A stretch of DNA of 32,000 nt. It comes from Puniceicoccaceae bacterium (lineage in GTDB: Bacteria; Verrucomicrobiota; Verrucomicrobiia; Opitutales; Coraliomargaritaceae). Positions 3,328 to 27,421 of the stretch are shown one piece after another. Under the pieces are notes generated by a model, which ran no database searches, was not told where the DNA came from, and saw only the letters and a program-made list of their open reading frames with translations. Where the stretch lies: NCBI GenBank assembly GCA_018402305.1, contig JAGYJE010000013.1, positions 50,790-82,789 on the forward strand. The letters run 5' to 3'. A program made the translations under genes and the position numbers. Numbering within the stretch: the stretch's first letter is position 1; each line of letters starts with the position of its first letter.

Positions 3328-5661
3328 ATGCCGAAACCTTCGCCCACCCAAACCAAGCATTCCCGACCCAACGCCTTGGAAATGTTCACAGACCGAGTCT
3401 CGGAGCAGGCGATTCTCGCCCGTCTGCTCGCGCCTTCCAGCGCTATTACGGCTCAAAACACGGATTTCCTGACGGTCTTTTATGGTGTCGGCGGTGTGGG
3501 GAAAAGCACGCTTTGCCGGCGAGCAATGGAGACTTGCGCCGAGACCCATCAAAAAGTCGTTGTCGCCCTGATTAACCTCGATACCAATCTATGGAACACA
3601 AAGTCGCCCTTCGCGCACTTGATCGGGGAATTGGTCCACTCCCTCCTCGCGAAGGGAGTCCAGACCCGCCTCGCCCAGGCGCTGCTACTGATTTACTCCC
3701 GTGTCGATGCCGCATTGCCACTTCGTGAGGAGTCCTCGGCTGTCTGGCAGGGCGCCCTCTCTGTGCTCGACCAAGCCACGCAGACTATCGGCATCCCAGG
3801 CTTCTCTCTCGTAGTGCAAGGTGCCCAATGGCTCAAAGACCGAAAAGAGCAGTCAGATACCGAAACTCGATTAAAGAGGCTCGGTCTCTGGCCAGATTGG
3901 CTGGACGGAAAAGTGAATCTAGCCGACCTCGAGAAAAAGCTCGGATTGGCGCTCTTTGAGGACCTTCGTGATTGGTCCGGTAAGGAAGGTCACCTGCGCT
4001 TCTTGATTGATGGCTTCGAACGGATTCAGGGGCACGAGCGCCACGAGGACTGCCAACTCCGGCTCCAGCAATTCATTGGCTACTTTGCCGCCGACGAGGA
4101 TGCAGTCCTTAGGTCGCGATTGCGCTTCTTCATCTTTGGCCGTGAAAAACTCCGCTGGGACGAACTCTACGAGGATCCATCGTGGAACGACTACTGGACG
4201 CAGCATTTGCTCGGTGGACTCGGCGAAGCCGATGCCCGTGATTACTTGCGCAAACACGCACAATGGCTCGAGGACCACGGGGATCCGGTTTCCGGCAAGG
4301 CGGTGATCAATCACTCAGAGCGCATCCTCGATGCCGCAGATGAACGGATTCACAACGAGCGCACAGTCTACCCATTTTACCTCGAACTCGCTGTTGAAAT
4401 GGTCCGCGACGGCGCGCGCGCGGGCCAAATCCCCGACCTCGGCCGCACTCCGACCGAACTCCGCGACCGCTTCCTCCGCTACTTGCCCGAAGCCGACGGT
4501 CACTTGCTCAAGATCCTCGCTCTCGCGGAGACCTTCGATGCGGATATGTTCGATGCCCTTGTCCGCGAACAACGCGTCACCGGCCACGTGGTCGGGGGCT
4601 TTCGCACGGCGGTGGCGGAAGGGCGCTCGTATGTGATCTGCTCCGAAGGCTGCTGCCGATTCCACCGCCTGATGGAAGATGCCCTCCAAGACCAATGGCT
4701 ATTATCACAACCGAACCGCGAGCAGGGATGCAAATTGGTTGCGTGGCTTCTTGAACATCTTGCCACTCGATTCCAAGGAAAGCAACGCAAGGATTGGACA
4801 GCGGAAGATCTGGATATCTGGAGGCGCGGAGTGGAAATCATCATTTCCCAGGGCGAGGAGCTTGACCTCATGGATCGAAAACAAACCGATGATTTGCTTT
4901 CCGGGGAGCCTTGGAAGATCAAATTCCCGGCCACTTTCGATTCACAAGAAGCATTTTCGAAGAGAATATTGGAAAGTAGAGAAAAAGCCCTCGGGGCGGA
5001 GCATCTTGATACCCTGATGAGCGTCAACAATCTCGGGAATCTCCTGAGCGACAAAGGCGACTACGACGGGGCCGAGGCGCTCTACCGCCGCGCTTTGGAG
5101 GGCAAGGAAAAAGCCCTTGGGGCCGAGCATCCCGATACGCTGAGTAGCGTCAACAATCTCGGGAGTCTCCTAGGCGACAAAGGCGACTACGACGGGGCCG
5201 AGGCGCTCTGCCGCCGCGCCCTGGAGGGCTATGAAAAAGCCCTCGGGGCAGAGCATCCTGATACGCTGACTAGCGTCAACAATCTCGGGAATCTCCTGAG
5301 CAACAAAGGCGACTACGACGGGGCCGAGGCGCTCTACCGCCGGGCCTTGGAGGGCAGAGAAAAAGCCCTAGGAGCCGAGCATCCCGAAACTATAGCTAGT
5401 GCCTATTCATTGGCTTCTATGATCAATCGTCGCAACCGCCGTCCCGAAGCTATAGCACTCCTCCGCCGCTTCGCCTCATTCTCCGCCGCCTCCCGCGACG
5501 GCGTCGCCTACAATCTCGCCTGCTACGAATGCCTCGAGGGCAATCTTGAAGAAGCCAAGCGCCTGATCTCCGAACACCTCCAACTGCATCCCGAGAAGAA
5601 AGATCAAGCACTCGCGGATGAGGATTTTGCCGCCATTCATGATTTTATCCGATCGCTGTGA
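3328..5661 (+). CDS. STAND-type P-loop NTPase with C-terminal kinesin-light-chain-type TPR repeats; no N-terminal effector domain
   Basis: Uninterrupted 777-aa ORF. It has a pre-Walker motif FTDRVSEQAILARLL, Walker A VFYGVGGVGKSTL and Walker B-like LRFLIDGFERI. About four 42-aa TPRs follow (ALGAEHPDTLxSVNNLGxLLxxKGDYDGAEALYRRALEG), then a capping helix region YNLACYECLEGNLEEAKRLISEHLQLHPEKK. Its stop TGA (5659-5661) overlaps the GTG start of the next gene. Confidence 0.85.
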   Translation: MPKPSPTQTKHSRPNALEMFTDRVSEQAILARLLAPSSAITAQNTDFLTVFYGVGGVGKSTLCRRAMETCAETHQKVVVALINLDTNLWNTKSPFAHLIGELVHSLLAKGVQTRLAQALLLIYSRVDAALPLREESSAVWQGALSVLDQATQTIGIPGFSLVVQGAQWLKDRKEQSDTETRLKRLGLWPDWLDGKVNLADLEKKLGLALFEDLRDWSGKEGHLRFLIDGFERIQGHERHEDCQLRLQQFIGYFAADEDAVLRSRLRFFIFGREKLRWDELYEDPSWNDYWTQHLLGGLGEADARDYLRKHAQWLEDHGDPVSGKAVINHSERILDAADERIHNERTVYPFYLELAVEMVRDGARAGQIPDLGRTPTELRDRFLRYLPEADGHLLKILALAETFDADMFDALVREQRVTGHVVGGFRTAVAEGRSYVICSEGCCRFHRLMEDALQDQWLLSQPNREQGCKLVAWLLEHLATRFQGKQRKDWTAEDLDIWRRGVEIIISQGEELDLMDRKQTDDLLSGEPWKIKFPATFDSQEAFSKRILESREKALGAEHLDTLMSVNNLGNLLSDKGDYDGAEALYRRALEGKEKALGAEHPDTLSSVNNLGSLLGDKGDYDGAEALCRRALEGYEKALGAEHPDTLTSVNNLGNLLSNKGDYDGAEALYRRALEGREKALGAEHPETIASAYSLASMINRRNRRPEAIALLRRFASFSAASRDGVAYNLACYECLEGNLEEAKRLISEHLQLHPEKKDQALADEDFAAIHDFIRSL
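4981..5390 (+). repeat. Tandem 126-bp coding repeats (about 3.25 copies) encoding 42-aa TPR units
   Basis: Units start at 4981, 5107, 5233 and 5359, each beginning gaaaaagccctXggggc.gagcatc. Copies are nearly identical at the nucleotide level. The fourth copy diverges after about 30 nt. Confidence 0.9.
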
Positions 5662-8600
5662 CCACGCCATCCCGCACTGTCCGCGTATTCCTGAGCAGCA
5701 CCTTTCGCGACTTCGCCGAAGAGCGGGATCTGCTGGTCCGAAAGGTCTTTCCTGAGCTTCGACGCAAGTGCCGGGAGCGCCAAGTCGAGTTGGTGGACGT
5801 CGACCTGCGCTGGGGCATTACCGAGGAGGAGGCCCAGCAAGGCAAGGTGCTCCCCATTTGCCTTGCCGAGATAGATCGTTCGCGCCCATATTTCATCGGT
5901 CTATTGGGCGAGCGCTACGGTTGGGTGCCGGAAAAAGACCTGTATGATTCGTCGCTCTTGCTAGATCAGCCATGGCTTGAAGAGCACCGGGGCGGCAAGA
6001 GCGTGACCGAACTTGAGATCCTCCATGGGGTCCTCAACAACCCTGAAATGGCAGGCCACGCATTCTTTTATTTTCGGGATCCGGCCTATTCGTCGCGAAA
6101 AGGCGGTGACTACCTGAGCGATGGGGAGGAAGAGCGGATTCGCCTTGCCGCGCTAAAGGGCCGCATCCTGCGCAGTGGATTCCCGTTGGTCGAAAACTAC
6201 CCCGGACCCGAAGCGCTGGCAGAACGGGTGCGCGATGACCTTTGGAAACTCATCGACAAGACTTTTCCGGAGAGCGAGGTGCCCGACTCCCTCGCACAGG
6301 AACGCATGCAGCACGAGGGGTTCGCCTCTTCGCGACTCGGTCTCTACATCGGCGGAGAGTGTTATCTGCGGGCGCTTGATGCCGCGATCTCCGCGGATCC
6401 TCGCAAGCCGGTCCTGGTGTGCGGCGCTTCGGGCGGCGGCAAGAGCGCGCTTCTCGCAAACTGGGCCCAAAAGTATTCCCTGGCAAATCCCGAGGCGATC
6501 GTGCTTACCCACTTCCTCGCCACAGGAGCCGATGCTGCCCATTCGGTCAACATGGTTATCCGCCTTCTGCGGGAGATTTCGCGAATGACCGGCGAGGAAC
6601 TCGTGCTTGATGGCGATCCACGTAGGGCGCTTCCGATGCTGGAGGAGTGGTTGGAAAAAGCCGGGAATTTCGCCCATGAAAAAGGCGGCGTTTTTGTCCT
6701 CCTGCTGGACGCCCTCGACAAGATGACCGTGCACCGAGACCTCGACTGGTGGCCGAAGCGCTTGCCGGAAGGAGTCGCCCTCGTAGCCTCGTGCCTTGAT
6801 GGTGGCGTGCGCGACTCCGTAATGCCGAAAATGGAATGGACCGAATTGCGCGTCTCGCCGCTCGAGCGATCGGATTGCGAGAGATTCATCCGCGAACATC
6901 TGGCGAAATACCGCAAGTCGCTCACGCCGCAGCAAACAGCCTTGGTTCTGGGGCATCCGCTTTGCGGGAATCCCCTCTTCCTGCGGACTTTGCTCGAGGA
7001 GCTTCGCATCTTCGGAGTCCATGAAGAACTCAATCTCCGGCTCAAGCACTACACCGAGAGCGTTACCATCGATGACCTCTTCGAGAAAGTGCTCGAACGA
7101 GTGGAGTCCGACAACTCGCCAGAATCGGTTCGTGCGGCCTTGGAGGTGCTCTGGGCGGCAAAAGAAAGTTTCGCCGAGGATGAACTTCTTGCCGTCTCTG
7201 GATTGCCCCCGGCGGTTTGGGCTCCTATCCACATCGCCCTTGACGAATCACTCATTGGGGCAGGACGACGACTCGCCTTCGGCCACGACTACCTGCGAAA
7301 GGCCGTCGAGGACCGCTACCTTGACACGACAGAAGACCGGCAGCGTATTCAAAAATGCATGGCGCAACTCTGTGCCAAAGCGATGGTCACAGGTCGCAAG
7401 GAAATCTCCCATTATATCCGCCGCCATGCGGTGGAGCATTTCCTGGAGGCGGAGGATTGGGATAACGCCGCAGGTGCCTTGTCGGATCTGGAATTCATCG
7501 AGGCCCGAGCCATCGCGCAGGAACTGCCCTCTATGCTCAAGGACTATGCCGGGGCCGTGAAGTTGCTTCCCGAGGGCGAAAAGCAGCGCCAAACGGAAGC
7601 GGCCCGGCAGGCGGAGTTGGACCGCTACGCCAAGGAAATGGCGGAATACGCCGCCACATGGTCGCGCATCCGCGATGGGAGCGGCGAGAATGAGCCCATT
7701 CTACCCCAACCGCCACTTCAGGTGCGACTATGGACCCGCGAGGAAATCGCGGCGGAGCGCAAACGCATGACGGAAAAGCCCAATCGTTTGGACATCGTCA
7801 AGGCGTTCCGCGTGTTCCTTGCCACCCATGCGACCCCGCTCCAGAAATATGCCACGAGCAGGGGCTTTGCTGCCCACCTCGCCAGAAACGAGACTCCAGC
7901 GGGGCCTGTGCACGACGTCGGTGAGAGACTGCTTGAGTCATTGGATGGCATTAAACTCCTTAGGCAATACCAAACCGGGGAAACATACAATCCACTTCCC
8001 GCCTGTCAGGCTGTGCTCGAGGGGCATATGGATGAGGTCAATGAACTCGTCCTGAGCGCAGATGGAAGGCGTGTCATTTCGGGGAGCAGGGATAATACCA
8101 TTCGCGTGTGGGATTTGGAGAGTGGCGAGTGCCTGAAGGTGCTTGGGGAGGCGGGACTCTGGAACGGGGTAAATCGCGTGCTGAGTGTGGACGGAAGACA
8201 TGTCGTTTCGAGCACGTTACATACCATTTGCGTTTGGGATGTGGAGAGCGGAGAATGCCTAAAAGAATTCGAGCATGTGTGGTATTACGGGCATGTGCGT
8301 CGTGCTTATTATTATGATGTCACCTTCTTCCTTCTGAGCACGGATGGAAGACGTGTCATTTCGGTGAGTAAAGGCCGCATGCAGAACGTGCGACTGTGCG
8401 TGTGGGATGTGGATAGCGGCGAGTGCCTGAAAGTGCTCGAAGGGAATACAGGCGCGGTCAAGTCCCTCGTCCTTACCGCTGATGGAAAGCGTGTCATCAC
8501 GGAAAGTTTCTTCCCCGCGCAGGGGGAGTGGAATCAGGAGAGCAAAGCTTTTCAAGAAGCGGAGCGTCCTTCTTCCTCCACGCTACACGTGTGGGATGTG

Positions 8601-11129
8601 GAGAGCGGAAAGTGCCTGAAGGTGCTCGAAGGGCATACAGGCGTGGTCAAGTCCCTAGTCATTACCGCAGATGGAAGGCGTGTCATTTCGGGGAGCTATG
8701 ACAATACCATTCGTGTTTGGGATTTGGAGGGCGGCGCTTGCCTGAAGGTGCTCGAGGGTCATACATGCGGTGTCAATACTATTGTCCTGAGAGCGGACGG
8801 AAGGCGTGTCATTTCGGGGAGCGATGACAATACCATTCGCGTGTGGGATTTGGAGAGTGGCGAGTGCCTAAAGGTATTCGAGGGGCATACGGGTGCGGTC
8901 GAATCACTCGTTCTGAGTGCGGATGGAAGGCGTGTTACTTCGGCGAGTTGCGACAATACCATTCGCGTGTGGGATGTGGATAGTGGCGAGTGTCTGAAGG
9001 AGTTAGACGTGCCGGCGGGTAAGTTTTTTTCGTCGATAACGTGTCTCGTGCTGAGCGCAGATGGAAGGCGTGTCATTTCGGGGAGCGGGGATCATACCAT
9101 TCGTGTTTGGGATTTGGAGAGTGGCGAGTGCACGAAGGTGCGGGAGAGGTATCCAGGTGCGTTCGTCCTGAGCGCGGATGGTAGGCGTGCCATTTCGATG
9201 AGGCACGGGGCTGGCCTTCGCATGTGGGATTTGCAGAGTGGCGAGTGCCTAAAGGTGCACGATGGGCATACGAGTAGGATCGAGTCCCTCGTCCTGAGTG
9301 CGGATGGCAAACGTGCCATTTCGATGATGTATGGGGATGCCCTTCGCATGTGGGATGTGGAAAGTGGTGAGTGCCTGAAGGTGTTTGAGGGGCATACAGT
9401 CGAGCTAACGAGTGGACCTCAGTATGCGAGCAATTGCCTTGTCCAAAGCGCGGATGGCAGGCTTGTCATTTCAGGGGACAGGGACGATACCATTCGCGTG
9501 TGGGATGTGGAGAACGGCGAGTGCCTGAAGGTGCTCCAGGGGCACTCGGATGGGGTTAAGTCCATCGTCCAGAGCGCGGATGGAAGGCGTGTCATTTGGG
9601 GGAGTAATGGGAATACCATTCGCGGGTGGGATGTAGAGAGCGGAGAGCATCTAGATTTTGACGGCTGGCATGCTGCTACAGTAAAGTCCCTCGCCCTCAG
9701 TGCGGATGGAGTGCGTGTTGTATCTGGTAGCAAAGACAAGACCATTCGCGTGTGGGATGTGGAGAGTGGGTCGTGCGTGGGGGTGTTCGAGGGGCATGCG
9801 GATGCGGTCGAGTCCCTCGTCATGAGCGCGGATGGAAGGCTTGTTGTATCGGGAAGCGGGGACCACACCCTGCGCGTGTGGGATTTAAGTAGGATGTGGG
9901 AGAGCAACGAGTGCGTGAAGGTGCTCGAAGGGCATGCAGGCGCGGTCAAGTCCCTCGTCCTTACCGCGGATGAAAAGTGTGTCATTTCGGGGAGTGAGGA
10001 CCATTCCATTCGTGTTTGGGATTTGGAGAGCGGAGAGTGCCTCAAGGTGCTTGAGGGGCATACGGGCGGAGTCGATCCTATGGTCCTGACCGCGGACGGA
10101 AAGCGTGTCATTTCGGGAGGTGAGGACCACACGCTGCGCGTGTGGGATTTGGAGAGTGGCGAGTGCCTGAAGATACTCGAGGGGCATACAAGTGGGGTCG
10201 AATCCCTCGTTCTGACCGCGGATGGAACGCGTGTCACTTCGGCGAGCTGGGACAATACCATTCGCGTGTGGGATGTGGAGAGTGGCGAGTGCCTGGAGGT
10301 GCTCGAAAGACATATGGATGGGGTCACATCCCTCGTTCTGACCGCAGACGGAAAGCGTATGGTATCGGGGAGTTGGAACCATTCCCTACGCTTCTGGGAT
10401 GTGGAGAGCGGCGAGTGCCTGAAGGTAATCGAGGGGCGTACGGATGGAATCAGGTCCCTCGTTCTGAGTGCGGACGGAAGGCGTATCGTTTCGGAGAGTC
10501 GGAACCACACCTTGCGCGTGTGGGATGTCGAGAATGGCGAGTGCCTGAAGGTGCTCGAGGGGTATATGGATGAGGTCAAATTCCTCGTCATAAGCGCGAA
10601 TGGCAAGACTGTTATATCGGGGCATAGAGATAAAATTCGCGTGTGGGATGTGGAGAGTGGAGTGTGCCTGAAGTCGCTAGAGGGGATGCGGCAAAAATGG
10701 ATCACGGATGAACCAACCGATCTCTTCGGGCTCTCCTCTGACACAGTCTATTCGTTCGTCGTGAGCGCGGATGGCAGAAGTGTTATATCGGGGTATAGCG
10801 ATAAGATTCGCGTGTGGAATGTAGAGAGTGGAGAGTGCCTGAAGGTGCTAGAGGGGCATATGGCTGAGGTCGAGTCCCTCGTCCTGAGTGCCGATGGAAG
10901 GCGCGTCATTTCGGGGAGTGACGACAGCACCTTGCGTGTGTGGGATCTCGATTCCGGGGAATGCTGTGGTGTATTTTTTGTGCGAGGTCATTCCTCCATA
11001 GCATTTCACTCGGGATCCGGGAGGTTGATTGTCGGTTTTTCGGATGGCCGCGTTGAGTTTTACAATATTCTGAGGCTTACACTTGACTCCTTCATTCCGC
11101 AGTCCGCGGATGAGGTCATACCTAATTAG
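5658..11129 (+). CDS. NLR-like protein: DUF4062-like N-terminal module + NACHT-type NTPase + helical linker + about 22 WD40 repeats (NWD1-like architecture)
   Basis: Uninterrupted 1823-aa ORF. The GTG start at 5658 is supported by the paralogue at 19030, which begins ATG with the identical MTTPSRTVRVF. The N-terminal module reads VRVFLSSTFRDFAEERDLLV..VDLRWGI..FIGLLGERYGW..GGKSVTELEILHGVL..FFYFRD. Walker A is VLVCGASGGGKSALLANW (G..S at 6423-6446) and Walker B is VFVLLLDALDKM. Conserved motifs LVASCL and GNPLFLRTLLEELRIFG follow. From about aa 787 there are repeated GHxxxVxSLVLSADGRRVISGSxDNTIRVWDLESGECLKVLE units. Confidence 0.9.
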   Translation: MTTPSRTVRVFLSSTFRDFAEERDLLVRKVFPELRRKCRERQVELVDVDLRWGITEEEAQQGKVLPICLAEIDRSRPYFIGLLGERYGWVPEKDLYDSSLLLDQPWLEEHRGGKSVTELEILHGVLNNPEMAGHAFFYFRDPAYSSRKGGDYLSDGEEERIRLAALKGRILRSGFPLVENYPGPEALAERVRDDLWKLIDKTFPESEVPDSLAQERMQHEGFASSRLGLYIGGECYLRALDAAISADPRKPVLVCGASGGGKSALLANWAQKYSLANPEAIVLTHFLATGADAAHSVNMVIRLLREISRMTGEELVLDGDPRRALPMLEEWLEKAGNFAHEKGGVFVLLLDALDKMTVHRDLDWWPKRLPEGVALVASCLDGGVRDSVMPKMEWTELRVSPLERSDCERFIREHLAKYRKSLTPQQTALVLGHPLCGNPLFLRTLLEELRIFGVHEELNLRLKHYTESVTIDDLFEKVLERVESDNSPESVRAALEVLWAAKESFAEDELLAVSGLPPAVWAPIHIALDESLIGAGRRLAFGHDYLRKAVEDRYLDTTEDRQRIQKCMAQLCAKAMVTGRKEISHYIRRHAVEHFLEAEDWDNAAGALSDLEFIEARAIAQELPSMLKDYAGAVKLLPEGEKQRQTEAARQAELDRYAKEMAEYAATWSRIRDGSGENEPILPQPPLQVRLWTREEIAAERKRMTEKPNRLDIVKAFRVFLATHATPLQKYATSRGFAAHLARNETPAGPVHDVGERLLESLDGIKLLRQYQTGETYNPLPACQAVLEGHMDEVNELVLSADGRRVISGSRDNTIRVWDLESGECLKVLGEAGLWNGVNRVLSVDGRHVVSSTLHTICVWDVESGECLKEFEHVWYYGHVRRAYYYDVTFFLLSTDGRRVISVSKGRMQNVRLCVWDVDSGECLKVLEGNTGAVKSLVLTADGKRVITESFFPAQGEWNQESKAFQEAERPSSSTLHVWDVESGKCLKVLEGHTGVVKSLVITADGRRVISGSYDNTIRVWDLEGGACLKVLEGHTCGVNTIVLRADGRRVISGSDDNTIRVWDLESGECLKVFEGHTGAVESLVLSADGRRVTSASCDNTIRVWDVDSGECLKELDVPAGKFFSSITCLVLSADGRRVISGSGDHTIRVWDLESGECTKVRERYPGAFVLSADGRRAISMRHGAGLRMWDLQSGECLKVHDGHTSRIESLVLSADGKRAISMMYGDALRMWDVESGECLKVFEGHTVELTSGPQYASNCLVQSADGRLVISGDRDDTIRVWDVENGECLKVLQGHSDGVKSIVQSADGRRVIWGSNGNTIRGWDVESGEHLDFDGWHAATVKSLALSADGVRVVSGSKDKTIRVWDVESGSCVGVFEGHADAVESLVMSADGRLVVSGSGDHTLRVWDLSRMWESNECVKVLEGHAGAVKSLVLTADEKCVISGSEDHSIRVWDLESGECLKVLEGHTGGVDPMVLTADGKRVISGGEDHTLRVWDLESGECLKILEGHTSGVESLVLTADGTRVTSASWDNTIRVWDVESGECLEVLERHMDGVTSLVLTADGKRMVSGSWNHSLRFWDVESGECLKVIEGRTDGIRSLVLSADGRRIVSESRNHTLRVWDVENGECLKVLEGYMDEVKFLVISANGKTVISGHRDKIRVWDVESGVCLKSLEGMRQKWITDEPTDLFGLSSDTVYSFVVSADGRSVISGYSDKIRVWNVESGECLKVLEGHMAEVESLVLSADGRRVISGSDDSTLRVWDLDSGECCGVFFVRGHSSIAFHSGSGRLIVGFSDGRVEFYNILRLTLDSFIPQSADEVIPN
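8016..11080 (+). repeat. Array of about 22 WD40-encoding units (mostly 126 bp) with near-identical scaffold nucleotides and localised variable codons
   Basis: Strings such as gatggaaggcgtgtcatttcggggagc and accattcgcgtgtgggat(g/t)tggagagtggcgagtgcctgaaggtgctcgagggg recur throughout. I counted 22 xVWDxxSGEC motifs in the translation. Some units carry insertions, for example FFPAQGEWNQESKAFQEAERPSSS and GMRQKWITDEPTDLFGLSSDTVYSF. Confidence 0.9.
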
Positions 11130-11170
11130 TTTTCTTGTCGTCCTTTTAAAATTCCTACAATATTTGCTCG

Positions 11171-11527
11171 ATGAAATTCAAAAAAATGTTCTTTTGCTGT
11201 GTTCCCCTTTTTCTGGGAATTGCGGATCTCGCCTCTGCGGCCGAGGCGATGACGGTCAGGATCAAGAGTGGTCGCATTCAGGAGTATGTGAACGGTTCGT
11301 TGAAGCGGAGCTACGGATCTAATCTCATCGATGCATCGACGGATGGCATCACAGTGGTGGGTGTCACCAAGGATGGTAAGGTCAAGGAGTATAAGAACGG
11401 CTCCCAGCGGCGTACGTTTGGCTCGAATGTGGTAAGGGTGCGGATCAGCGGTGGCACGGTATTTGCCGAACTCAAAAATGGCAAGACGGCCGAATACGTG
11501 AACGGCAGCCTTCGGCGCACTTTTTAA
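11171..11527 (+). CDS. Small secreted protein with three beta-hairpin-type repeats
   Basis: 118-aa ORF. The N-terminus MKFKKMFFCCVPLFLGIADLASAAEA looks like a signal peptide. Three repeats follow: GRIQEYVNGSLKRSYGSN, GKVKEYKNGSQRRTFGSN and GKTAEYVNGSLRRTF. It starts 41 nt after the WD40 gene stop. Confidence 0.6.
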   Translation: MKFKKMFFCCVPLFLGIADLASAAEAMTVRIKSGRIQEYVNGSLKRSYGSNLIDASTDGITVVGVTKDGKVKEYKNGSQRRTFGSNVVRVRISGGTVFAELKNGKTAEYVNGSLRRTF

Positions 11528-11555
11528 GTGTGAAACCATCATTCACGAACAGCAT

Positions 11556-12305
11556 ATGAAAAAAGCTTTTTTAATTACGGTCCCCATTCTGTTGATGGGT
11601 GGGGCGATACTGGTAACCAGCCATTTCAGCAAAAATCCGGAGCGTAATCTGGAAGTGGGCAAAACTTACGAAATTTGGTTGAAGGAGGCAGAGGTAACTC
11701 CTCTCGATCGCAATGGCGAAAAGTGGGATACCGATGGCAGTGCTCCTGACCTGCGCGGCATGATGAGCTGGCAGGGGCAGGTGGTTCTTCAAACAGTTGA
11801 AGCTTCGGACGGGCTGATCGCTCGGTGGAGCGATACAGCGGTCAGTGCATCGCAGGCCCTCAAGGGTGAGGTTGATACCCAATCCCTGCAAAGGGTGGGG
11901 CGTTTCAGAATGGATTCGAAAGGGTTCATCGAAATCGGCATTTTTGATGGTGATCTTGTCTCGTTTTCATTCGCAGGTGGATTTCGCATTCCGCTCTCCT
12001 CACTGAGGCTTGGGCACAATCGTGTGGATGGGAGTGGTGCTTTGAAGACAGTCGCGTTTCGGGTTTCGGAAAGCGACTCTCTTGAAGAGGATCATGGGTC
12101 AAATGCCGAGTGGAAATTGACGAATGGGGTGCTGGAGCTGATACAAGCGCCCGAGGCCATGAAGAGTGCCTCGGAGAGGCTTGTTGAACAGGCAGGTAAA
12201 TACACCGACAAGATCACTGACGAACTTCAAAAACAGGGCGAAGCATTGGGCGAGGAATTGGAGAAGGGCGTGAATGAGGCCATGAAGAACCTGAAGTTCA
12301 AGTGA
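11556..12305 (+). CDS. Membrane-anchored hypothetical protein (N-terminal TM, beta-rich middle, C-terminal amphipathic helix)
   Basis: 249-aa ORF. The N-terminus MKKAFLITVPILLMGGAILVTS is hydrophobic. The C-terminus ERLVEQAGKYTDKITDELQKQGEALGEELEKGVNEAMKNLKFK appears helical and charged. It starts 28 nt after the previous gene, and its stop overlaps the next gene's GTG. Confidence 0.6.
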   Translation: MKKAFLITVPILLMGGAILVTSHFSKNPERNLEVGKTYEIWLKEAEVTPLDRNGEKWDTDGSAPDLRGMMSWQGQVVLQTVEASDGLIARWSDTAVSASQALKGEVDTQSLQRVGRFRMDSKGFIEIGIFDGDLVSFSFAGGFRIPLSSLRLGHNRVDGSGALKTVAFRVSESDSLEEDHGSNAEWKLTNGVLELIQAPEAMKSASERLVEQAGKYTDKITDELQKQGEALGEELEKGVNEAMKNLKFK

Positions 12306-12799
12306 GCAGAGAGAGAAAATTTGCTGCGGTTCTGGTAATTCTTTCCTGCCTAGCTTTTGGCATGGCGCTGGTTTTTCCATTGTTTTCGATTCACCCGGCA
12401 GCTGGTCGCTGGACGGGCTTGGCCAAACTACTGGCTTCCGACCAGTTTGCATCCCGATCGTTTACCTTGATCGGCGGTATCATCATTCTGTGGAAGGAAA
12501 ATGAACGCATTCTTGCAGTCTTGATGGGCTTGATTTCGCTTGTCTTGCCGGCACTCAAGCTCTCCGTGCTATGGTGGGAAATTTTGCACCTCTCATCTCT
12601 CCCGGAAAGATTTTTGGCTTTTGTTCAAGCAGTCTCGCGCTACGCAATGGTGGAGGTTTTGCTCATTGCTCTGCTCGTCCTTGTGGTAAAAGGAATGCCG
12701 GGCGGCAGTGAATTCAAAATTCACGCCGGCACATGGTATTTTACCGCATCGGTGATTTTAAGTCTTTTTGCGAGCAGATGGGCGCTTGGTTCAAAGTGA
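12302..12799 (+). CDS. PqiA-like (paraquat-inducible protein A family) single-domain integral membrane protein
   Basis: 165-aa ORF with a GTG start at 12302 that overlaps the upstream stop (GTGA). It has four hydrophobic segments. The motif SLVLPALKLSVLWW....VSRYAMVEVLLIALLVLVVK....GTWYFTASVILSLFAS resembles the PqiA-domain pattern (P..K....; grWSMlDVFvvAlLValvK; G.w.F...Vil). Confidence 0.55.
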   Translation: MSRERKFAAVLVILSCLAFGMALVFPLFSIHPAAGRWTGLAKLLASDQFASRSFTLIGGIIILWKENERILAVLMGLISLVLPALKLSVLWWEILHLSSLPERFLAFVQAVSRYAMVEVLLIALLVLVVKGMPGGSEFKIHAGTWYFTASVILSLFASRWALGSK

Positions 12800-13609: not shown

Positions 13610-13882
13610 ATGTTCATCTTGGGTTCAATCCGGAAACGTAACGGTTCGGAATAGAGTAGATCAGGGCTGACCGAAAAACTCAGGGGATCCAGCGCGGAGA
13701 TGTAAAACTTGACTGGTATCGGACACTTGAACATTGGCGCAGCGGATTTGGTTCCTATGTCTGGCGGCCTTTGCTCACTGCCTGCGCCGAGGACTGCTGG
13801 GGGATTCTCACGGCGGAGGTTAAATAAAACTGCATGATAGTTGTTACATCAAAATCAACAAACAGAAAAGAAAATCAAAATT

Positions 13883-19007: not shown

Positions 19008-19029
19008 AATCTGCTAATCTTCTAATAGA

Positions 19030-21657: not shown

Positions 21658-21676
21658 ATTGAACAGGCCTGCCACC

Positions 21677-24600
21677 ATGTCCACTCCATCCCGCCTCGTC
21701 CGAGTTTTCATCAGTTCCACCTTCCGTGACTTCATGGGAGAGCGGGATGAACTCGTGAAGCGTGTGTTTCCTGAATTGCGACGTCGATGCAAGGACCGGT
21801 TCGTCGAGATCGTCGAGGTTGATCTCCGTTGGGGCATCACCGAGGATCAGAGTCGGGAGGGGGCAACCCTGAAAATCTGCCTTCAAGAAATCGACCGTTG
21901 CCGTCCGAGCGCCCCGGTTTTTTTCATAGGATTGCTCGGTGAGCGCTATGGCTGGGTTCCGCCGAATGATTACTATCCGACGGAGATTCTGGATGATCCG
22001 GAACTGGCGTGGGTGCGGGAACACATCGGAGGCAAGAGTGTCACCGAACTGGAAATCCTCCACGGAGTGCTCAACAATCGGAATCTGAAAGACCATGCCT
22101 TTTTCTATTTCCGTCAGGATGGTTACCAAATCCGTCACTGGGCGCGGATCCATCAGGATTATCCGGATCTGGTGCCGGAAGATTTCACTAACGAGCGCGA
22201 ATCCGACCCAGTATCAGCGCGCGCCAAACAAGATTCACTCAAAGAAAGGGTAAATCAAGCCGATCTCAGTCATGCTCCGCGGCTCTATGAGGAACCCGGA
22301 GAACTCGTTCGGATCGTGCTGGAGGATCTCTGGCTCCAGATTGAGAGGGTTTTCCCCGCGAGCGAGGTCCCCGACGAGCTTGAGCGAGAACGCCTCGACC
22401 ACGAAGCCTTCGCAAAAAGCCGACTTAAGGGATATGTGAGGCGGCCCCTCCTTCTTCATGCGCTGGACGAGATCCTCGACCCCGGAGGTCCTTCCATCAA
22501 GGTCGTTACCGGCTCCTCTGGCGGAGGGAAAAGCGCGTTGCTAGCCTACTGGGTGGACCTGCGGTCGGACCGCATTCCACCCTGCACCTTCGTGCATTTC
22601 ATCGGCGGAACACCGGAAAGCGGCACGTTGCCGAATCTGGTGTTTCGACTCATGCGGACGATCCAGCGCTGGGGTGCAGTCCAGGACCGGGTGCCCGACG
22701 ATCTGTCCGAGGCGATCGCGGCTCTTCCGCAATGGCTTACGAGGACGGTGCAGGCCCATGGAGAGGTTCTCATTGTTCTCGATGCGCTCAACCAACTGGA
22801 GGAGGAGAGCGCACATCAGCTGTCCTGGCTACCTGCAGAAAACATTCCCGGGGTGCGTTGGGTGGTAAGCACACTCCCAGGTCTCTGTCAGGATGCCCTA
22901 ACGATAAGAGGGTGGGCGACTTCGCGTTATACCGTCGAAGTTCCTCCTCTCGAGCGCGGGGAGCGGGCCAGCATCGTCGAGTCCTATCTCGCGCTTTTCA
23001 CGAAGCGACTCGATGTGCGTCTGGCGGAGCGGCTCGCTGCGTCACCCCAATCGGAAAACGCCCTATTCTTGAAGGTCGCGCTCGACGAATTGCGGATTCG
23101 AGGCCGTCACGAGGCCCTCGAAGAACTGATCGACCGCATCCTCGCCTGCCCAGGCCCTGTCGATCTGTTTGTCCTCGTTCTGAAAAGTCTTGAGGAATTC
23201 GACAAGGATCGGCCTGATCTTGTCCGCGAATCGCTCGGGTTGCTCTGGGTGGCGCGACGCGGTCTGACTGAAACCGAACTCCTCCAGCTTCTTTCCGGCC
23301 ACGAGAATCCCGCAACCCACCCTCTACCGCGCGCTCTTTGGTCCCCAATCTTTTTAGCACTTGAAGGTTCTCTCGTCGAGCGCAACGGGCGTTTGAGCTT
23401 TTTCCATGATTTTCTCAGAGAAGCGGTCGCGCGTGAATACCTCGACGAGGAATGGGAGCGGCACAGGGTGCATTCCCGTTTCACCACATTGGCTCGCCGA
23501 TTGTTGAACGGAAAGTCGGCTGGGGCAACCCTCGATCACTATCTGGCTCGGTATGCCAGTCATCACGCGGGTGCCCTCGGGGATTTACCAGCGTTGGCAG
23601 AATTCGCCGTCTCCTTCGCGCCTTCTCGGTTTGAGATGCTCTCACTTTCCGAGGGAGTTTTATTGGTATCGGAGGCCTGTATGACCCTTGGGGTCTCAGA
23701 TAAATTTAGCGACGATCCCAGATTTCTCAGCGACGTTGCCGTTCTCCTTGAAACGGCGCGCGCACCAGAGATTACCCGTTCCATTTGCCGTAAGTTGATC
23801 CGGGCCGGGAACGGGTGGCGAGAGGCCTTCCAAGGGGCGGGACTCGATGGACGTGGAGCCACCTATGTCTTCGCCGCAGAGTGGGCTGCGTGGATCCAAG
23901 AACTTCCGCCGCAACAAGCAGAAGAAGAAATCGAGTTCATCATCGAATCGATGGATGACATCGATGGCGGTCTTGCTCAAGCGGCAATCTACGCTTTTAA
24001 ATACGCGATCATTGCAAATCCCGAGCGCTTCACGATCAGTCTCCTCGAGCAGGTCTTTAGTGGTTGGCAGGAAAACCGTCTCATGCTGAACAACCTCGTG
24101 ATGCAACTGGCCATCGATGGTCTCCATCTGCCGGTGGTGGATGACTTCGAGCGTTTCTGGAGCGTGACATGGGAATACAACGCGGTCGAACTCGACTTGC
24201 TGAAGGGCGCCCTCGCTTTCCGCAACCTACCCAGTCCCCATCGGGATGAGGTTGCAGCTGAGTTCTTTCGACATCTCGAGCAAAGGCGCTCTGGTTTTCA
24301 ACTTACGCCGGACTGTTTTGCATCGCGCCGTATCTTAGACTGCTTTTGGTCGCTGGGCCAGACAGGAGACAGCCTTTCGGATGACCTGAGGACTTGCCTC
24401 CGCGAGCGGCATGGTCAGGAAATCTTGGAACTGCTGCTAGAATCTCCGTTTTGGGAGGTGGGTGAAAAGGCTGCCGAAGTGCTCTCCGAGAAGATGGACT
24501 TGTGCGAGGCGATGCGTGACCGCATCCGCGATCTGGCCCTTGACGTGGATGGAGCTCCCGCCTATGCCGTCTTTATTGCCTATTCCCTATGGGCCTTGCG

Positions 24601-24985
24601 TGCTGGGGAAACTGAGGATTATCTGCATCTCGTTGAAGCTTGTTCCCTTTCATCGAATTGTCAGGTCCGCGGCCAAGCTGCCGAATCGCTCATGTCCTTC
24701 CTACGAGACTGCGGCGACGGTAGCCTCGGAGATTATTTCTCAAAGGCCCTTCCGTCGCTGCGGCGCTTCTTGCATGATTCCGACATCTGGCCAGTTCAGG
24801 AAACCCTGCACAACCTCCAGTCGCTTGACGACCGCCTCGCCATTGCAGGGATCGATTGGCGGAGTCATCTCCGCCCCGATCATGCGCCGCTCGTCTCCCT
24901 CGTTGGCGAGTGGGAGGCGATCGGACCGGATTGGATGAAGTTTGAAGAAATCGCACGAATCCGACAACAGCAGGCCATTCCCTGA
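21677..24985 (+). CDS. NLR-like protein: DUF4062-like N-terminal module + NACHT-type NTPase + long helical region ending in HEAT-like repeats
   Basis: The ORF is open from 21608. ATG 21677 gives MSTPSRLVRVFISSTFRDF, aligned with the three paralogues, and leaves 19 nt after the upstream stop. Walker A is IKVVTGSSGGGKSALLAYW and Walker B is VLIVLDALNQLEE. The motifs VRWVVSTLPGL and ENALFLKVALDELRI follow. The C-terminus has HEAT-like motifs: SPFWEVGEKAAEVL, SSNCQVRGQAAESL and DSDIWPVQETLHNL. Confidence 0.85.
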   Translation: MSTPSRLVRVFISSTFRDFMGERDELVKRVFPELRRRCKDRFVEIVEVDLRWGITEDQSREGATLKICLQEIDRCRPSAPVFFIGLLGERYGWVPPNDYYPTEILDDPELAWVREHIGGKSVTELEILHGVLNNRNLKDHAFFYFRQDGYQIRHWARIHQDYPDLVPEDFTNERESDPVSARAKQDSLKERVNQADLSHAPRLYEEPGELVRIVLEDLWLQIERVFPASEVPDELERERLDHEAFAKSRLKGYVRRPLLLHALDEILDPGGPSIKVVTGSSGGGKSALLAYWVDLRSDRIPPCTFVHFIGGTPESGTLPNLVFRLMRTIQRWGAVQDRVPDDLSEAIAALPQWLTRTVQAHGEVLIVLDALNQLEEESAHQLSWLPAENIPGVRWVVSTLPGLCQDALTIRGWATSRYTVEVPPLERGERASIVESYLALFTKRLDVRLAERLAASPQSENALFLKVALDELRIRGRHEALEELIDRILACPGPVDLFVLVLKSLEEFDKDRPDLVRESLGLLWVARRGLTETELLQLLSGHENPATHPLPRALWSPIFLALEGSLVERNGRLSFFHDFLREAVAREYLDEEWERHRVHSRFTTLARRLLNGKSAGATLDHYLARYASHHAGALGDLPALAEFAVSFAPSRFEMLSLSEGVLLVSEACMTLGVSDKFSDDPRFLSDVAVLLETARAPEITRSICRKLIRAGNGWREAFQGAGLDGRGATYVFAAEWAAWIQELPPQQAEEEIEFIIESMDDIDGGLAQAAIYAFKYAIIANPERFTISLLEQVFSGWQENRLMLNNLVMQLAIDGLHLPVVDDFERFWSVTWEYNAVELDLLKGALAFRNLPSPHRDEVAAEFFRHLEQRRSGFQLTPDCFASRRILDCFWSLGQTGDSLSDDLRTCLRERHGQEILELLLESPFWEVGEKAAEVLSEKMDLCEAMRDRIRDLALDVDGAPAYAVFIAYSLWALRAGETEDYLHLVEACSLSSNCQVRGQAAESLMSFLRDCGDGSLGDYFSKALPSLRRFLHDSDIWPVQETLHNLQSLDDRLAIAGIDWRSHLRPDHAPLVSLVGEWEAIGPDWMKFEEIARIRQQQAIP

Positions 24986-25080
24986 ATCACGATAAATATC
25001 GGTTGCCGTCAGATCAAACTTAGATGCAGGATTGTCGGGTTTTTGGCCCCATTGTATTTTAATCCTCACAGACTAACCTC

Positions 25081-26805
25081 ATGATACCCCGCACTTCCAT
25101 CATTCTGCTGGTTCTCTCCTCGGTCTGCTCCTTCGTGGCCGCCTTCATCGGCTTTGGTGGGGTGGGGGAGGATTACTCGATCGCGACGCGCGCTTATATG
25201 GCTCTGCAGTTGTTCACCCTCGAAGGTGGGGATATCTCCGGTTCGGTTCCGCTCGGTGTGGAGATCGCGCGCTGGTTAGCTCCAGCGACAACCCTCGGTG
25301 GTATCTATGCCGCAGCCCACGCGTTTTTCTCAAAGCTTTGGGGCAGCTTACGGCTTCGCTGGATACGTGGCCACATGGTGGTCTGTGGAGGAGGTGAGAA
25401 AGGATGCGCGCTTGCCTCTGAGCTTGCTCAGGAAAGTGGCGCGCAAGTGGTGCTGGTTGATCCGCTGGAATCGCCGGCCATAGACGTTTTACGCAAGCAA
25501 GGGGTTCTGGTGATTCAGGGTGACGGAGGTGATTCCGGAGTCATGCAAGAGGTCGGTCTTTCGCGTGCCTCACGCTTGGTCTGCGTGACCGGGGACGATC
25601 GCACCAATATTGGCATCACGTTGGCTGCGGCGGAATCGTTGCCAGCAGAACGTGCATCGCAGCCTCTTGAGATCCACACCCACGTGAGCGATGTCGCAAG
25701 CCGCAATATCCTGCAACGAAGCCAGATGCTGGATTTGAAAAACGATCTCAGGCACCGCATCCGCCTATTCAATTGTCATGCCAACCGGGCGCGTCTCGCT
25801 CTCGAGGAATGTCCTTTGGAATGGGATTCACGCACCGGCCTTCGCGACCAAGAAGTCCATCTCGTTCTCGGTGTCTTAGGCCTTCTTGAAAAGGCGATGG
25901 TGGTTCAAGCTGCGCACATCGGGCATTTTCGTCACGGCGGCAAGCTGCGCGTGCATCTTGTGTCGATACGTGCCAAGTCTGACGAGTCGGCCCTGATCAA
26001 GGAGTATCCCGGCTTCCGCAACTGCGCAAATTTGGATTTTACCACGCTCGAGGAGTCCGATGACTTCGTGGAAACCGTGGCAAAAGCCGCGTCCTGCTGG
26101 GGCGGTAATTCATTGATCACGGTGCTTCTCGGCGGAACGCCCGAAGCCGCTTTGGCCGATGCCTTGTTGCTTGGCGAGCGGCTTAAAAATGGCCCGTGTC
26201 TCCGAGTGCTGATCGATACGAAAGGCAATGGCGGGATTCGCAGCATCGTGGCTAAAAACCCCAAGCTCATCTCATGGATCAGATTCCTCCCAGAGCTGAC
26301 TGCTGCGGTCGGGAGAAATGCCGTATTTCAGGAATCGCTCGACGCCGTCGCCCGTAGGATTCATGAAACATGGAAGGAAGGCACCGATCAGCGAATCCTC
26401 AAAGCCGAGTCAGAGGGTGACCTTGAAACCGCCAAAAAACACCGTGAAAAAGACACCTATCGTAGCTGGGAGGATCTCACCGAGGAGCAGAAAGATGCCA
26501 ACCGGCTCGCTGCGGATCACATCTCCGTCAAGTTTCGCGCCGTAGGCCTCGATCCGGATCTTGGGTCTTCACTGCCCACGGCCTGGGACGACCTTGATGC
26601 ACAACAACTCGACATGTTAAGCCGCATGGAACACGAGCGCTGGGCTGCCCCGTTGTGGATGGCTGGATGGACCGCTGGCGAACGCAACGACGAACTGAAA
26701 ATTCATCCCAACCTTGTGCCCTATGATGAGCTCGACGTGGGAACCAGAAAGTATGACCTTGAACAGGTCATGATGGCGGTGGCGTATCGAGTTGGATTAA
26801 AATAA
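25081..26805 (+). CDS. Membrane protein: N-terminal TM segments + Rossmann (TrkA-N-like) NAD-binding domain + two RyR-type domains
   Basis: 574-aa ORF. Hydrophobic segments are SIILLVLSSVCSFVAAFIGF and IARWLAPATTLGGIYAAAHAFF. A glycine-rich Rossmann motif reads HMVVCGGGEKGCALASELAQESGAQVVLVD. The C-terminus has ARRIHETWKEG.....YRSWEDLTEEQKDANRLAADHISVKFRAVGL and MEHERWAAPLWMAGWTAGERNDELKIHPNLVPYDELDVGTRKYDLEQVMMAV. These match the bacterial RyR-domain pattern (iHe.W..., GW.yGe.rd...k.hP.LvpydeL....K.yD) as I recall it. Confidence 0.7.
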   Translation: MIPRTSIILLVLSSVCSFVAAFIGFGGVGEDYSIATRAYMALQLFTLEGGDISGSVPLGVEIARWLAPATTLGGIYAAAHAFFSKLWGSLRLRWIRGHMVVCGGGEKGCALASELAQESGAQVVLVDPLESPAIDVLRKQGVLVIQGDGGDSGVMQEVGLSRASRLVCVTGDDRTNIGITLAAAESLPAERASQPLEIHTHVSDVASRNILQRSQMLDLKNDLRHRIRLFNCHANRARLALEECPLEWDSRTGLRDQEVHLVLGVLGLLEKAMVVQAAHIGHFRHGGKLRVHLVSIRAKSDESALIKEYPGFRNCANLDFTTLEESDDFVETVAKAASCWGGNSLITVLLGGTPEAALADALLLGERLKNGPCLRVLIDTKGNGGIRSIVAKNPKLISWIRFLPELTAAVGRNAVFQESLDAVARRIHETWKEGTDQRILKAESEGDLETAKKHREKDTYRSWEDLTEEQKDANRLAADHISVKFRAVGLDPDLGSSLPTAWDDLDAQQLDMLSRMEHERWAAPLWMAGWTAGERNDELKIHPNLVPYDELDVGTRKYDLEQVMMAVAYRVGLK

Positions 26806-26821
26806 GGAATCAATTAAGAAA

Positions 26822-27421
26822 ATGCTCTGGAGTAACAACAAACTAATCGAGTTAATAGAAACTGACGATTTTGAAAAATTTGAGAAGGAATTCTCCAAGA
26901 AAAAAGACAAGACGGAGAGAACTCGCTATCTGAAATTTCCAGATTGGACTTATCTGCATATTGCCTGCAATAATAAGGCACTGGGAGTTGTTAAATCCAT
27001 ATTTAAGATATTTTCAGATTTCCCGGTGGATATCCAAGACGAACGAGGTATGACGCCTCTCCTAAGAAGTATCGCCAAGGAGGATTTCGAAACGGTCAAA
27101 TACTTGATCTCCAGAGGAGCTAGCCTGGATGTAACGGTCAATAACGATGTCAAAGTCATTCATTACGCGATACAGAATGGTAATCCGGATTTGCGGACTT
27201 TCTGTATCAATGAATACGGCCCACACAATCTGGACAATCTGGCTTATCTATCCATAGCTCAAATTTTGAATGTGCAGGAAATAATGCGGCTGAAGACTTT
27301 AGGGGTTGAGTTTGATCCTGCCAAATTAAAAGAGATTATCATACGAGTGATTTTATCTGATGATAACGAAGAGCACATCCTTGAAAACCTTCATTATTTT
27401 CTCGATCAAAAATTAAAATGA
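26822..27421 (+). CDS. Ankyrin-repeat protein
   Basis: 199-aa ORF starting 16 nt after the previous stop, in an AT-rich islet. ANK-like units are YLHIACNNKALGVVKSIF, ERGMTPLLRSIAKEDFETVKYLISRGASLDV and VIHYAIQNGNPDL. Confidence 0.7.
   Translation: MLWSNNKLIELIETDDFEKFEKEFSKKKDKTERTRYLKFPDWTYLHIACNNKALGVVKSIFKIFSDFPVDIQDERGMTPLLRSIAKEDFETVKYLISRGASLDVTVNNDVKVIHYAIQNGNPDLRTFCINEYGPHNLDNLAYLSIAQILNVQEIMRLKTLGVEFDPAKLKEIIIRVILSDDNEEHILENLHYFLDQKLK

Follow-up and report, generated by a model that had tools for sequence, protein, structure and literature searches.

NLR-like NIR-NACHT genes and a candidate RyR-domain membrane partner in a variable locus of a Puniceicoccaceae bacterium

We analyzed a 32,000-nucleotide stretch of DNA from a Puniceicoccaceae bacterium of the Verrucomicrobiota (assembly GCA_018402305.1, contig JAGYJE010000013.1, positions 50,790 to 82,789; hereafter "the window", to whose first letter all coordinates refer unless another locus is named). 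Positions 3328-27421 of the window carry eight open reading frames (ORFs), g1 to g8, all on the + strand. Four of them (g2, g3, g5 and g6) encode NLR-like proteins that combine one N-terminal domain, NIR (Pfam DUF4062), and one NACHT-type NTPase with different C-termini. Directly downstream lies g7, which encodes a channel-like protein with RCK and RyR domains, and RyR-domain genes recur beside NIR or TIR genes in other genomes. A preliminary description of this DNA had treated g7 as a bystander; we find that no other part of the locus is as informative or has been described so little.

The cluster opens with g1 (3328-5661; 777 aa), which encodes a P-loop NTPase, probably of the STAND class, without an effector domain and with a TPR_10/TPR_12 array (Pfam TPR_10, 1.4e-45). 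Its stop codon overlaps the start of g2 by 4 nt (GTGA). The product of g2 (5658-11129; 1823 aa) joins an NIR domain (Pfam DUF4062, 3.5e-13) and a NACHT-type NTPase to a long WD40 array (Pfam WD40, 2.6e-152; also Beta-prop_NWD2_C). After an interval occupied by other genes, g3 (14461-16923; 820 aa) encodes an NIR domain (Pfam DUF4062, 4.2e-14), a NACHT-type NTPase (NPHP3_N) and a helical domain, with no repeat sensor, and is followed by g4 (16932-19007; 691 aa), whose product consists of a short N-terminal domain, a leucine-rich repeat (LRR) array (LRR_4, 4.9e-27) and a family-specific C-terminal domain of 345 aa. The next two genes again encode NIR and NACHT domains, followed in g5 (19030-21657; 875 aa; Pfam DUF4062, 1.3e-13; NACHT, 26.7 bits) by TPR_10/12 repeats (TPR_10, 8.3e-30) and in g6 (21677-24985; 1102 aa; DUF4062, 6.6e-13; NPHP3_hel) by a HEAT-like alpha-solenoid from about residue 590. 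We place the start of g6 at 21677 on the basis of the paralog alignment; the ORF list offers 21608. The g7 product (25081-26805; 574 aa) is predicted to comprise two transmembrane helices (2TM) with a re-entrant helix, tandem RCK/TrkA_N domains (TrkA_N, 7.8e-17) and a C-terminal tandem RyR of the R12 type (RyR, 2.6e-13). The last gene, g8 (26822-27421), encodes a 199-aa ankyrin-repeat protein (Pfam Ank_4, 1.2e-11) and has a low GC content (0.44-0.51). Spacers from g3 through g8 measure 8, 22, 19, 95 and 16 nt, exactly as first reported.

The relatedness of g2, g3, g5 and g6, and the sequence motifs on which it had been proposed, were fully borne out by alignment. The N-terminal motifs TPSRxVRVFxSSTFRDF, ERDxLV, VFPELRR, VDLRWGITE, FIGxLGERYGW and SVTELEILHGVL are kept in all four proteins, as are [FYL]FYFR, DLW..I..FP..VPD.L.RE..H and N[PA][LM]FL...L.ELR. 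The aligned cores fall into two subtypes, g2/g5 and g3/g6, the latter with an extra insert of about 20 residues. DUF4062 (PF13271) is recognized at 49.1-53 bits in the four proteins (cut-off 24.7). The Walker A motif GxSGxGKS follows at residues 256 (g2), 310 (g3), 256 (g5) and 279 (g6), and a Walker B motif (hhhhD) is also present. The Pfam NACHT profile (PF05729; cut-off 26.7 bits) is borderline, at 26.7 bits for g5, 26.6 for g6, 19.2 for g3 and 18.6 for g2. NPHP3_N in g3 (26.9 bits, cut-off 24.8) and NPHP3_hel in g6 (29.3 bits, cut-off 27.9) exceed their thresholds, and the profiles matched by proteins of the window include, besides these two, HTH_NWD1 and Beta-prop_NWD2_C. An AlphaFold2 (AF2) model of g6 (mean predicted local distance difference test score, pLDDT, 85.9) retrieved Avs3, Avs4, MalT, a STAND-TPR protein and the Dark apoptosome in Foldseek searches. 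Motifs, profiles and model together identify g2, g3, g5 and g6 as NLR-like STAND proteins of the NACHT type. The NACHT-like NTPase of the preliminary description is thus upheld by the Walker motifs, the NPHP3-type profiles and the structural matches, and left borderline by the NACHT profile itself; of the five STAND NTPases it counted, these four stand, and g1 is only a probable one.

That description also regarded the shared N-terminal module as functionally uncharacterized, a view that has since been overtaken. Preprints from 2026 rename DUF4062 as NIR and describe it as a TIR-like NADase that cleaves NAD+ into ADP-ribose (ADPR) and nicotinamide by means of a catalytic Glu. According to the same work, NIR drives abortive infection, with NAD+ depletion, in PsAvs2, Vulcan, Vesta, Swarozyc and Evangelion; NIR genes are enriched close to defence genes; and NIR is the N-terminal domain of the eukaryotic proteins TEP1, NWD1, NWD2 and NPHP3. 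The g3 NIR domain aligns with PDB 11gz_A, the chain crystallized for the NIR domain of human TEP1, at an E value of 1.2e-26. Compared with the known catalytic residues TEP1 E1008, PsAvs2 E108 and KpSwz E97, the counterpart in the window proteins is the second E of an invariant SVTELE motif: E120 in g2, E127 in g3, E120 in g5 and E126 in g6. For this comparison TEP1 E1008 was equated with position 115 of the 11gz_A chain, as deduced from the construct (895-1113) with an inferred numbering offset. On the strength of these residues, the four proteins are predicted to be NADases.

Protein identity among the NIR cores of the paralogs is 79-91%, and the synonymous sites are saturated (proportion of synonymous differences, pS, 0.7-0.76); even g2 and g5, at 91% protein identity, are saturated. 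Because the protein is conserved over saturated synonymous sites, we conclude that the NIR head is under strong purifying selection. The same saturation rules out recent tandem duplication or gene conversion as the source of the near-identical N-termini. By these sequence measures, g2, g3, g5 and g6 are old paralogs with unrelated tails.

Four recognition surfaces had been proposed for these tails, and three were upheld as named. The WD40 array of g2 matches at the 1e-152 scale, with 15 repeats individually above threshold, and is visible in the DNA as a 126-nt unit repeated from about 7967 to 10960; the resemblance of this DUF4062-NACHT-WD40 order to metazoan NWD1, pointed out in the preliminary description, was correct. 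The TPR_10/12 match of g5 is strong, and an LRR sensor in trans is supported by the evidence on g3 and g4 given below. The fourth, that of g6, needs a weaker name: HEAT_2 reaches 18.2 bits, under the Pfam cut-off, and the AF2 model shows an all-alpha solenoid from about residue 590 with Foldseek matches to karyopherin-beta2 and the PP2A-A subunit, so that "HEAT-like" is reasonable, not proven. A sequence search of the PDB with the C-terminus of g6 and with the NTPase region of g1 returned nothing meaningful.

The third paralog, g3, has no repeats of its own, and the LRR_4 protein encoded by g4 comes directly next. A g3-like and g4-like pair recurs in loci L002, L005, L008, L012, L096 and L097, and in L004 a single 1609-aa protein, P0255, is a colinear fusion that matches residues 3-781 of g3 (64% identity) and then residues 41-681 of g4. 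This colinear fusion suggests that g3 and g4 act as one split NLR, and supports the reading of g4 as a sensor detached from g3. Relatives that align over three-quarters or more of g4 number more than 80; they are about 560-1040 aa long, a range probably due in large part to LRR number. The LRR-coding half of g4 (17001-18000) has a GC content of 0.42; the rest of the gene (18001-19000) and its neighbors have about 0.56. The low-GC half and the length range of the relatives suggest cassette-like replacement of the LRR array.

Exchange of sensors is also indicated at g1. Its product has a P-loop (GVGGVGKS, at residue 53), a Walker B-like FLIDG and a TPR_10/12 array, and matches AAA_16 at 27.3 bits, under the cut-off of 32.6; on these features it is a probable STAND NTPase. 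The g1 NTPase is no paralog of the g2, g3, g5 and g6 cores, and had no match in 79 related NIR-NACHT loci (1.04 Mb) that we fetched. Although the NTPase regions of g1 and g5 are unrelated, their TPR regions show 48% protein identity, and the final 150 nt of g1 (5496-5644) and of g5 (21486-21634) are 88% identical in DNA; this points to an exchange of sensor domains between different STAND backbones. A g1-like gene also lies upstream of an NIR-NACHT gene in L176, a 16,063-bp metagenomic contig.

The protein encoded by g7 was modelled with AF2 from 19 homologs (pLDDT 88.5). The model has a first transmembrane helix at residues 5-27, a short helix at 34-46, a loop and a second transmembrane helix at 58-94, followed by two Rossmann/RCK-type domains (99-402) and the tandem RyR (418-571). 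Its top Foldseek matches are the GsuK channel, including NAD- and ADP-bound forms, the TrkA ring, MthK, CASTOR/DMI1 and Slo1, and it is this combination of modelled topology and structural matches that underlies our reading of g7 as a possible channel; Pfam Ion_trans_2 was not detected in it. The dinucleotide-binding GxGxxG motif is intact (GGGEKG). The RyR domain (PF02026) scores 50.5 bits against a cut-off of 27.4 and contains HERW, then HP 24 residues on and YD 17 residues on, aligned residue-for-residue with Repeat12 of RyR1 and RyR3, the comparison being with these animal repeats rather than with RyDEP. Across 19 members of the g7 family, H518 and D559 never vary, and W521 is kept in at least 90%. 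Phage RyDEP proteins bind or cleave 2'cADPR and 3'cADPR, cyclic forms of ADPR, and their ADPR pocket is formed by H75, W78, H100 and D117, residues common to animal RyR Repeat12 (Lopez Rivera et al., PMC13232231, May 2026 preprint). If the roles assigned to the pocket in that study are transferred to g7, it becomes a candidate ADPR- or NAD-responsive membrane partner of the NIR proteins. The family is large, with 3,927 representatives at 50% identity (E <= 1e-30). Longer members had appeared to be possible TIR or NIR fusions; they carry only extra RyR repeats.

We then asked what lies near NIR-NACHT genes elsewhere, taking a 10-kb neighborhood in the 79 loci. Nineteen RyR-domain ORFs were found within 10 kb, spread over 17 of the 79 loci, or 15 of the 47 with a length of 12 kb or more. 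By a rough estimate (12,657 of 1.84e9 representatives at E <= 1e-10), about 0.007 RyR ORFs would be expected in the roughly 1000 genes covered; the excess is several orders of magnitude. The partners have three architectures: (i) g7-like proteins, (ii) small stand-alone RyR proteins, and (iii) multidomain proteins of 857-1008 aa, which combine either RelA_SpoT, TPR, a prokaryotic TRPM-type SLOG and RyR, sometimes with NUDIX, or AAA and RyR. In a Pfam scan of 115 non-redundant genes at most two genes away from NIR-NACHT, RyR was the first non-repeat family (10 genes) and TIR_2 the next (6).

The association also holds in the reverse direction. The g7 relatives P0027 and P0028 lie directly 5' of a TIR_2 gene, and P0050 is one gene from TIR_2 and CHAT. 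In the P0041 locus, an NIR-STAND gene and a pair of LRR genes lie some 2.3 kb upstream, separated from P0041 by two small genes, and P0048 is downstream of an NIR-NACHT-TPR gene, again with two small genes intervening. Beside P0046 and P0051 (24% identical) we found neither TIR_2 nor NIR. NIR occurs in 15 of 80 metagenomic g7-family loci, and among 96 non-redundant immediate neighbors of the family the commonest domains are RyR (11) and TIR_2 (9), with TPR and WD40 arrays coming next. Searches for TIR around g7 relatives by phmmer and by iterated hidden Markov models, from three TIR_2 seeds, gave no matches, so the TIR_2 counts are those of the Pfam batch scan, a source of totals and not of locus identities. 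Adjacency of RyR and NIR or TIR genes is mostly tight and co-directional, with spacers of -4 to about 95 nt. The g6-g7 adjacency is kept in L176, and a g3'-g4'-g7' order is kept in L005, L008, L096 and L097, while the surrounding genes vary. The 2026 preprints on NIR and RyDEP make no mention of host RyR, TrkA or channel partners, and there was no such description in the literature we searched.

Large RelA_SpoT/TPR/SLOG/RyR proteins, in which RelA_SpoT is a nucleotide pyrophosphokinase domain, adjoin NIR-NACHT genes in L023 (3448-6021), L068 (15484-18453) and L069 (14668-17694), two of them with NUDIX. These proteins join the ADPR-handling domains of animal TRPM2 and RyR in one bacterial polypeptide.

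A scan of one genome per species for the two most conserved peptides returned 561 loci. The nearest relatives, at 70% identity, are in metagenome-assembled genomes of Verrucomicrobiota; other hosts belong to the Planctomycetota, Thermodesulfobacteriota (Deltaproteobacteria in older records), Acidobacteriota, Nitrospirota and Chlorobiota, and one is an archaeon. Clustering of paralogs, a layout that the preliminary description had linked to no experimentally characterized system, proved to be common in the family: at least two full-length NIR-NACHT paralogs are present in 12 of the 79 loci and three in 4 of them. As none of these loci has four, the window represents the upper extreme. L176 derives from a near-identical strain, with g6 at 97% and g7 at 91% identity, and its order is an IceA2-like gene, sA, a PqiA-like gene, a g1-like gene, a small ORF, g6', g7' and a gene for a 195-aa NIR-only protein; g2-g5 and g8 are missing. 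Such a difference in content despite 97% identity in g6 indicates rapid gene turnover. Upstream of g1, split or overlapping transposase ORFs occupy 279-2616: remnants of the IS66 family at 279-869 and 647-1783 on the + strand (Pfam LZ_Tnp_IS66, 1.4e-6; DDE_Tnp_IS66, 1e-3) and of the ISL3 family at 2254-2616 on the - strand (Pfam DDE_Tnp_ISL3, 2.4e-6). By their annotation these insertion sequence (IS) remnants form the upstream border of the variable region. A tRNA or integrase was also considered as the island border, and no tRNA was found. The locus behaves as a variable island rather than as a set of syntenic housekeeping genes.

Taken together, these features lead us to favor, as fairly probable, an interpretation of the locus as a variable immune or conflict island of NLR-like NADases that would act by abortive infection, with an ADPR-responsive membrane effector as their possible point of convergence. 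Reasoning from Avs and other NLR proteins, we expect the WD40, TPR or HEAT-like surface, or the LRR surface acting in trans, to bind an invader-derived ligand. Binding would free the NACHT-type NTPase for oligomerization, the oligomer would cluster the N-terminal NIR domains so that NAD+ is cleaved, and NAD+ cleavage would lead to cell arrest. With lower confidence, we suggest that the RCK and RyR domains of g7 could sense the drop in NAD+, or the accumulation of ADPR or one of its derivatives, and turn it into a membrane event, so that one downstream module might serve several sensors. The broader generalization, that NIR (and TIR_2) enzymes signal through ADPR or a derivative to a dedicated family of RyR proteins, several NLR sensors here feeding one RCK/RyR channel-like effector, is offered only tentatively and is doubtful as it stands. 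The immune part of this interpretation had been put forward before; the STAND and NLR-like proteins, the four recognition surfaces and the variable setting make it reasonable, and a match to a known defence system is the element that did not follow.

Several observations, here and among the alternatives below, weigh against this interpretation. PADLOC-DB 2.0 gave no Avs, NLR or system-level model match for g1-g8, only generic TPR, HEAT-ARM and Ankyrin models; that library dates from 2023 and predates the description of NIR. The bacterial NIR proteins studied experimentally include none of the NACHT type, and linear ADPR and nicotinamide are the only products known for NIR. As to g7, the data on RyR ligand binding come from phage proteins. 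At the position of the K+ selectivity filter (TVGYG in K+ channels) g7 has TLEGGD, a degenerate form of which the family consensus is T-[LF]-[QE]-G-G-[DE], so conduction by g7 is unproven. Its N-terminus aligns with that of a canonical Ion_trans_2 paralog with an hhalign probability of 18%, and because this profile comparison is weak, "channel-like" is the strongest statement we make.

One alternative, which we consider unlikely, is that the NIR-NACHT genes are independent, single-gene NAD-depleting systems, with g7 and g8 as unrelated island cargo, or g7 as an ordinary K+ homeostasis channel. PsAvs2, Vulcan and Swarozyc work as single proteins, PsAvs2 being effective alone in Escherichia coli (2026 preprint). 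About 78% of the NIR-NACHT loci (62 of 79) have no RyR gene within 10 kb, most g7-family loci have no NIR, and the distant g7 relative P0051 sits in a metabolic gene context; g7 is therefore not obligatory, and its family is possibly broader in role. The 95-nt gap upstream of g7, in which no hairpin had been noticed, contains one weak terminator-like hairpin (25037-25049; 5-bp stem, T-rich tail). Terminator-like sites are just as numerous across the region as shuffling leads one to expect, which leaves a single operon of about 13 kb plausible for g3-g8, whose genes would then be co-transcribed. Independence of the systems is harder to reconcile with an association that is reciprocal and extends over several phyla, three RyR architectures and two NADase folds (NIR and TIR_2), with same-strand gaps that are typically short, and with the retention of the g6-g7 and g3'-g4'-g7' arrangements.

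Another possibility, likewise improbable in our estimation, is that g7 is a safeguard, its RyR domain sequestering or hydrolyzing basal ADPR-type molecules, or reporting NAD status, and so preventing autoimmunity from leaky NIR. Proteins of the RyDEP family are sponges or glycosidases (PMC13232231), the invariant H518 and D559 of the g7 family are the equivalents of the catalytic dyad, accessory "detoxifying" partners exist in Vesta and Metis, and NUDIX is fused to RyR in some neighbors. A stoichiometric sponge, however, needs no conserved 2TM segment and tandem RCK ring like those of ligand-gated channels. Moreover, in some loci the immediate neighbor of a degenerate-filter g7-like gene is a canonical K+ channel paralog (TTVGYGE, Ion_trans_2) ending in the same TrkA_N-RyR module (L088, 2201-3796; L089, 3257-4861; L090, 9730-11340; also L099, L101, L102, L106 and L115); such neighbors could form hetero-oligomers, or one could be a regulatory subunit.

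The least probable alternative is a non-immune or non-catalytic role, with NIR as an oligomerization or adaptor module and the cluster serving cell-fate or self/non-self signaling in a complex bacterium instead of phage defence, for an adaptor role has been proposed for animal TIRs and possibly for NWD1 and NPHP3, only TEP1 was active as an NADase in vitro and NWD1, NWD2 and NPHP3 were inactive despite the same architecture (2026 preprints), the family is commonest in Verrucomicrobiota, Planctomycetota, Thermodesulfobacteriota and Acidobacteriota, all rich in such STAND proteins, and PADLOC recognized no known defence gene among the eight proteins of the window; yet the catalytic Glu and its surrounding motif are invariant and under strong purifying selection, the domain is closest to TEP1, the active eukaryotic NADase, the partners bear nucleotide- or ADPR-binding domains, and the locus shows rapid turnover and flanking IS remnants.

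If the favored reading, that of NLR-like NADases in a conflict island, is compared with known systems, the nearest are PsAvs2 and the other NIR-STAND defence proteins (Le Mouellic et al., bioRxiv 10.64898/2026.09.04.749371), in which an N-terminal NIR with its catalytic Glu likewise precedes a STAND NTPase in the center and repeats at the C-terminus. For the window proteins, too, abortive infection through NAD+ depletion is the predicted outcome. The two groups differ in that the NTPase of the window proteins is of the NACHT/NPHP3-TEP1 rather than the Avs2 type, that their sensors are WD40, LRR in trans, TPR and HEAT-like rather than the terminase-binding domain of Avs2, and that four paralogs are clustered with an RyR-domain partner gene. 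The domain order NIR-NACHT-WD40/TPR is that of TEP1, NWD1, NWD2 and NPHP3; unlike these, the window proteins are bacterial, lack TROVE and vWA, occupy a variable, IS-flanked locus and have one sensor on a separate polypeptide.

For the proposed signaling step the closest precedent is Thoeris, in which the TIR protein ThsB makes a signal, either a cADPR isomer or His-ADPR, and this switches on ThsA by way of a SLOG or Macro domain. The proposed logic is similar, a NAD-cleaving enzyme of TIR fold and a separate ADPR-type ligand-binding protein with a killing module, and SLOG domains occur in some RyR partners of NIR-NACHT genes; the pairing here is one of genomic linkage. The producer, however, would be an NLR-fused NIR whose known products are only ADPR and nicotinamide, and the receiver an RyR- and RCK-containing channel-like protein. 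Phage RyDEP shares with g7 the PF02026 fold with its H, W, H and D residues, and binds ADPR, 2'cADPR and 3'cADPR, but it is a small, soluble anti-defence protein of phages, whereas g7 is host-encoded and membrane-anchored, has its RyR domain joined to tandem RCK domains, and is linked to NADase genes. The RCK-gated K+ channels GsuK and MthK have the 2TM and re-entrant helix and the tandem RCK ring that are predicted for g7, NAD- or ADP-bound GsuK being the best structural match; they differ in the filter and in lacking the appended RyR domain. With TRPM2 the parallel is the idea of an ADPR-responsive cation channel, g7 having no homology to the TRPM2 pore, and with animal RyR it is the R12 domain held in common.

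The NADase head of NIR was already known; new here are the RyR/RCK partner that recurs with NIR and TIR genes in many phyla, the split LRR sensor and the four-paralog array. The NIR-NACHT core is a bacterial counterpart of that of human TEP1, NWD1, NWD2 and NPHP3, and a tractable system could show how this architecture switches on. The pairing of NIR or TIR with host RyR provides a testable hypothesis for the role of the host RyR/R12 domain, bears on the possibility, raised by the authors of the NIR preprint, that NIR domains produce signals, and would extend the Thoeris principle to an ion-channel-type effector. If the broader generalization is true, bacteria would possess a pathway from an NLR through a NAD-derived messenger to a ligand-gated channel, built on ligand-binding modules through which animal RyR and TRPM2 channels are regulated, RyR R12 in the window and SLOG and NUDIX in its sister loci, and NIR would be a signal generator as well as an agent of NAD+ depletion. 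The g3/g4 split and the variable paralog array, in turn, suggest that sensor surfaces are swapped behind a constant effector.

The remaining genes of the region are less readily connected with this system. No homolog of g8 was found in the 79 related loci, and because it is not conserved there its membership in the system is doubtful. Between g2 and g3 lies a cassette of three ORFs on the + strand: an IceA2-like ORF (11171-11527; Pfam IceA2, 2.2e-27), a gene for a 249-aa protein without assigned family (11556-12305) and one for a PqiA-like membrane protein (12302-12799; Pfam PqiA, 2.8e-15). As a trio or a pair, this cassette (11171-12799) recurs near an NIR/RyR cluster in at least three other contigs, at varying positions (L008, 19683-21274; L099, 4413-5623; L176, 427-2283). 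The g3-g8 block lies between genes for two small proteins with a Bflower_3 (6-fold beta-flower) domain, one on each strand (13238-13609, +; 28117-28494, -). Farther downstream, on the - strand, a 636-aa protein (28645-30555) has a C-terminal FGE-sulfatase domain and 420 N-terminal residues without a family match; an FGE-sulfatase gene is also close to a g7 relative in L081 and L082. In L081 and L094 (about 8000-13000), TIR_2-paired g7 relatives lie amid genes for DUF2201/AAA_5, Metallophos and SMC_N, NERD, a methyltransferase-domain protein and an integrase, and the TIR_2 gene is followed by one for a conserved protein of about 700 aa without assigned family.

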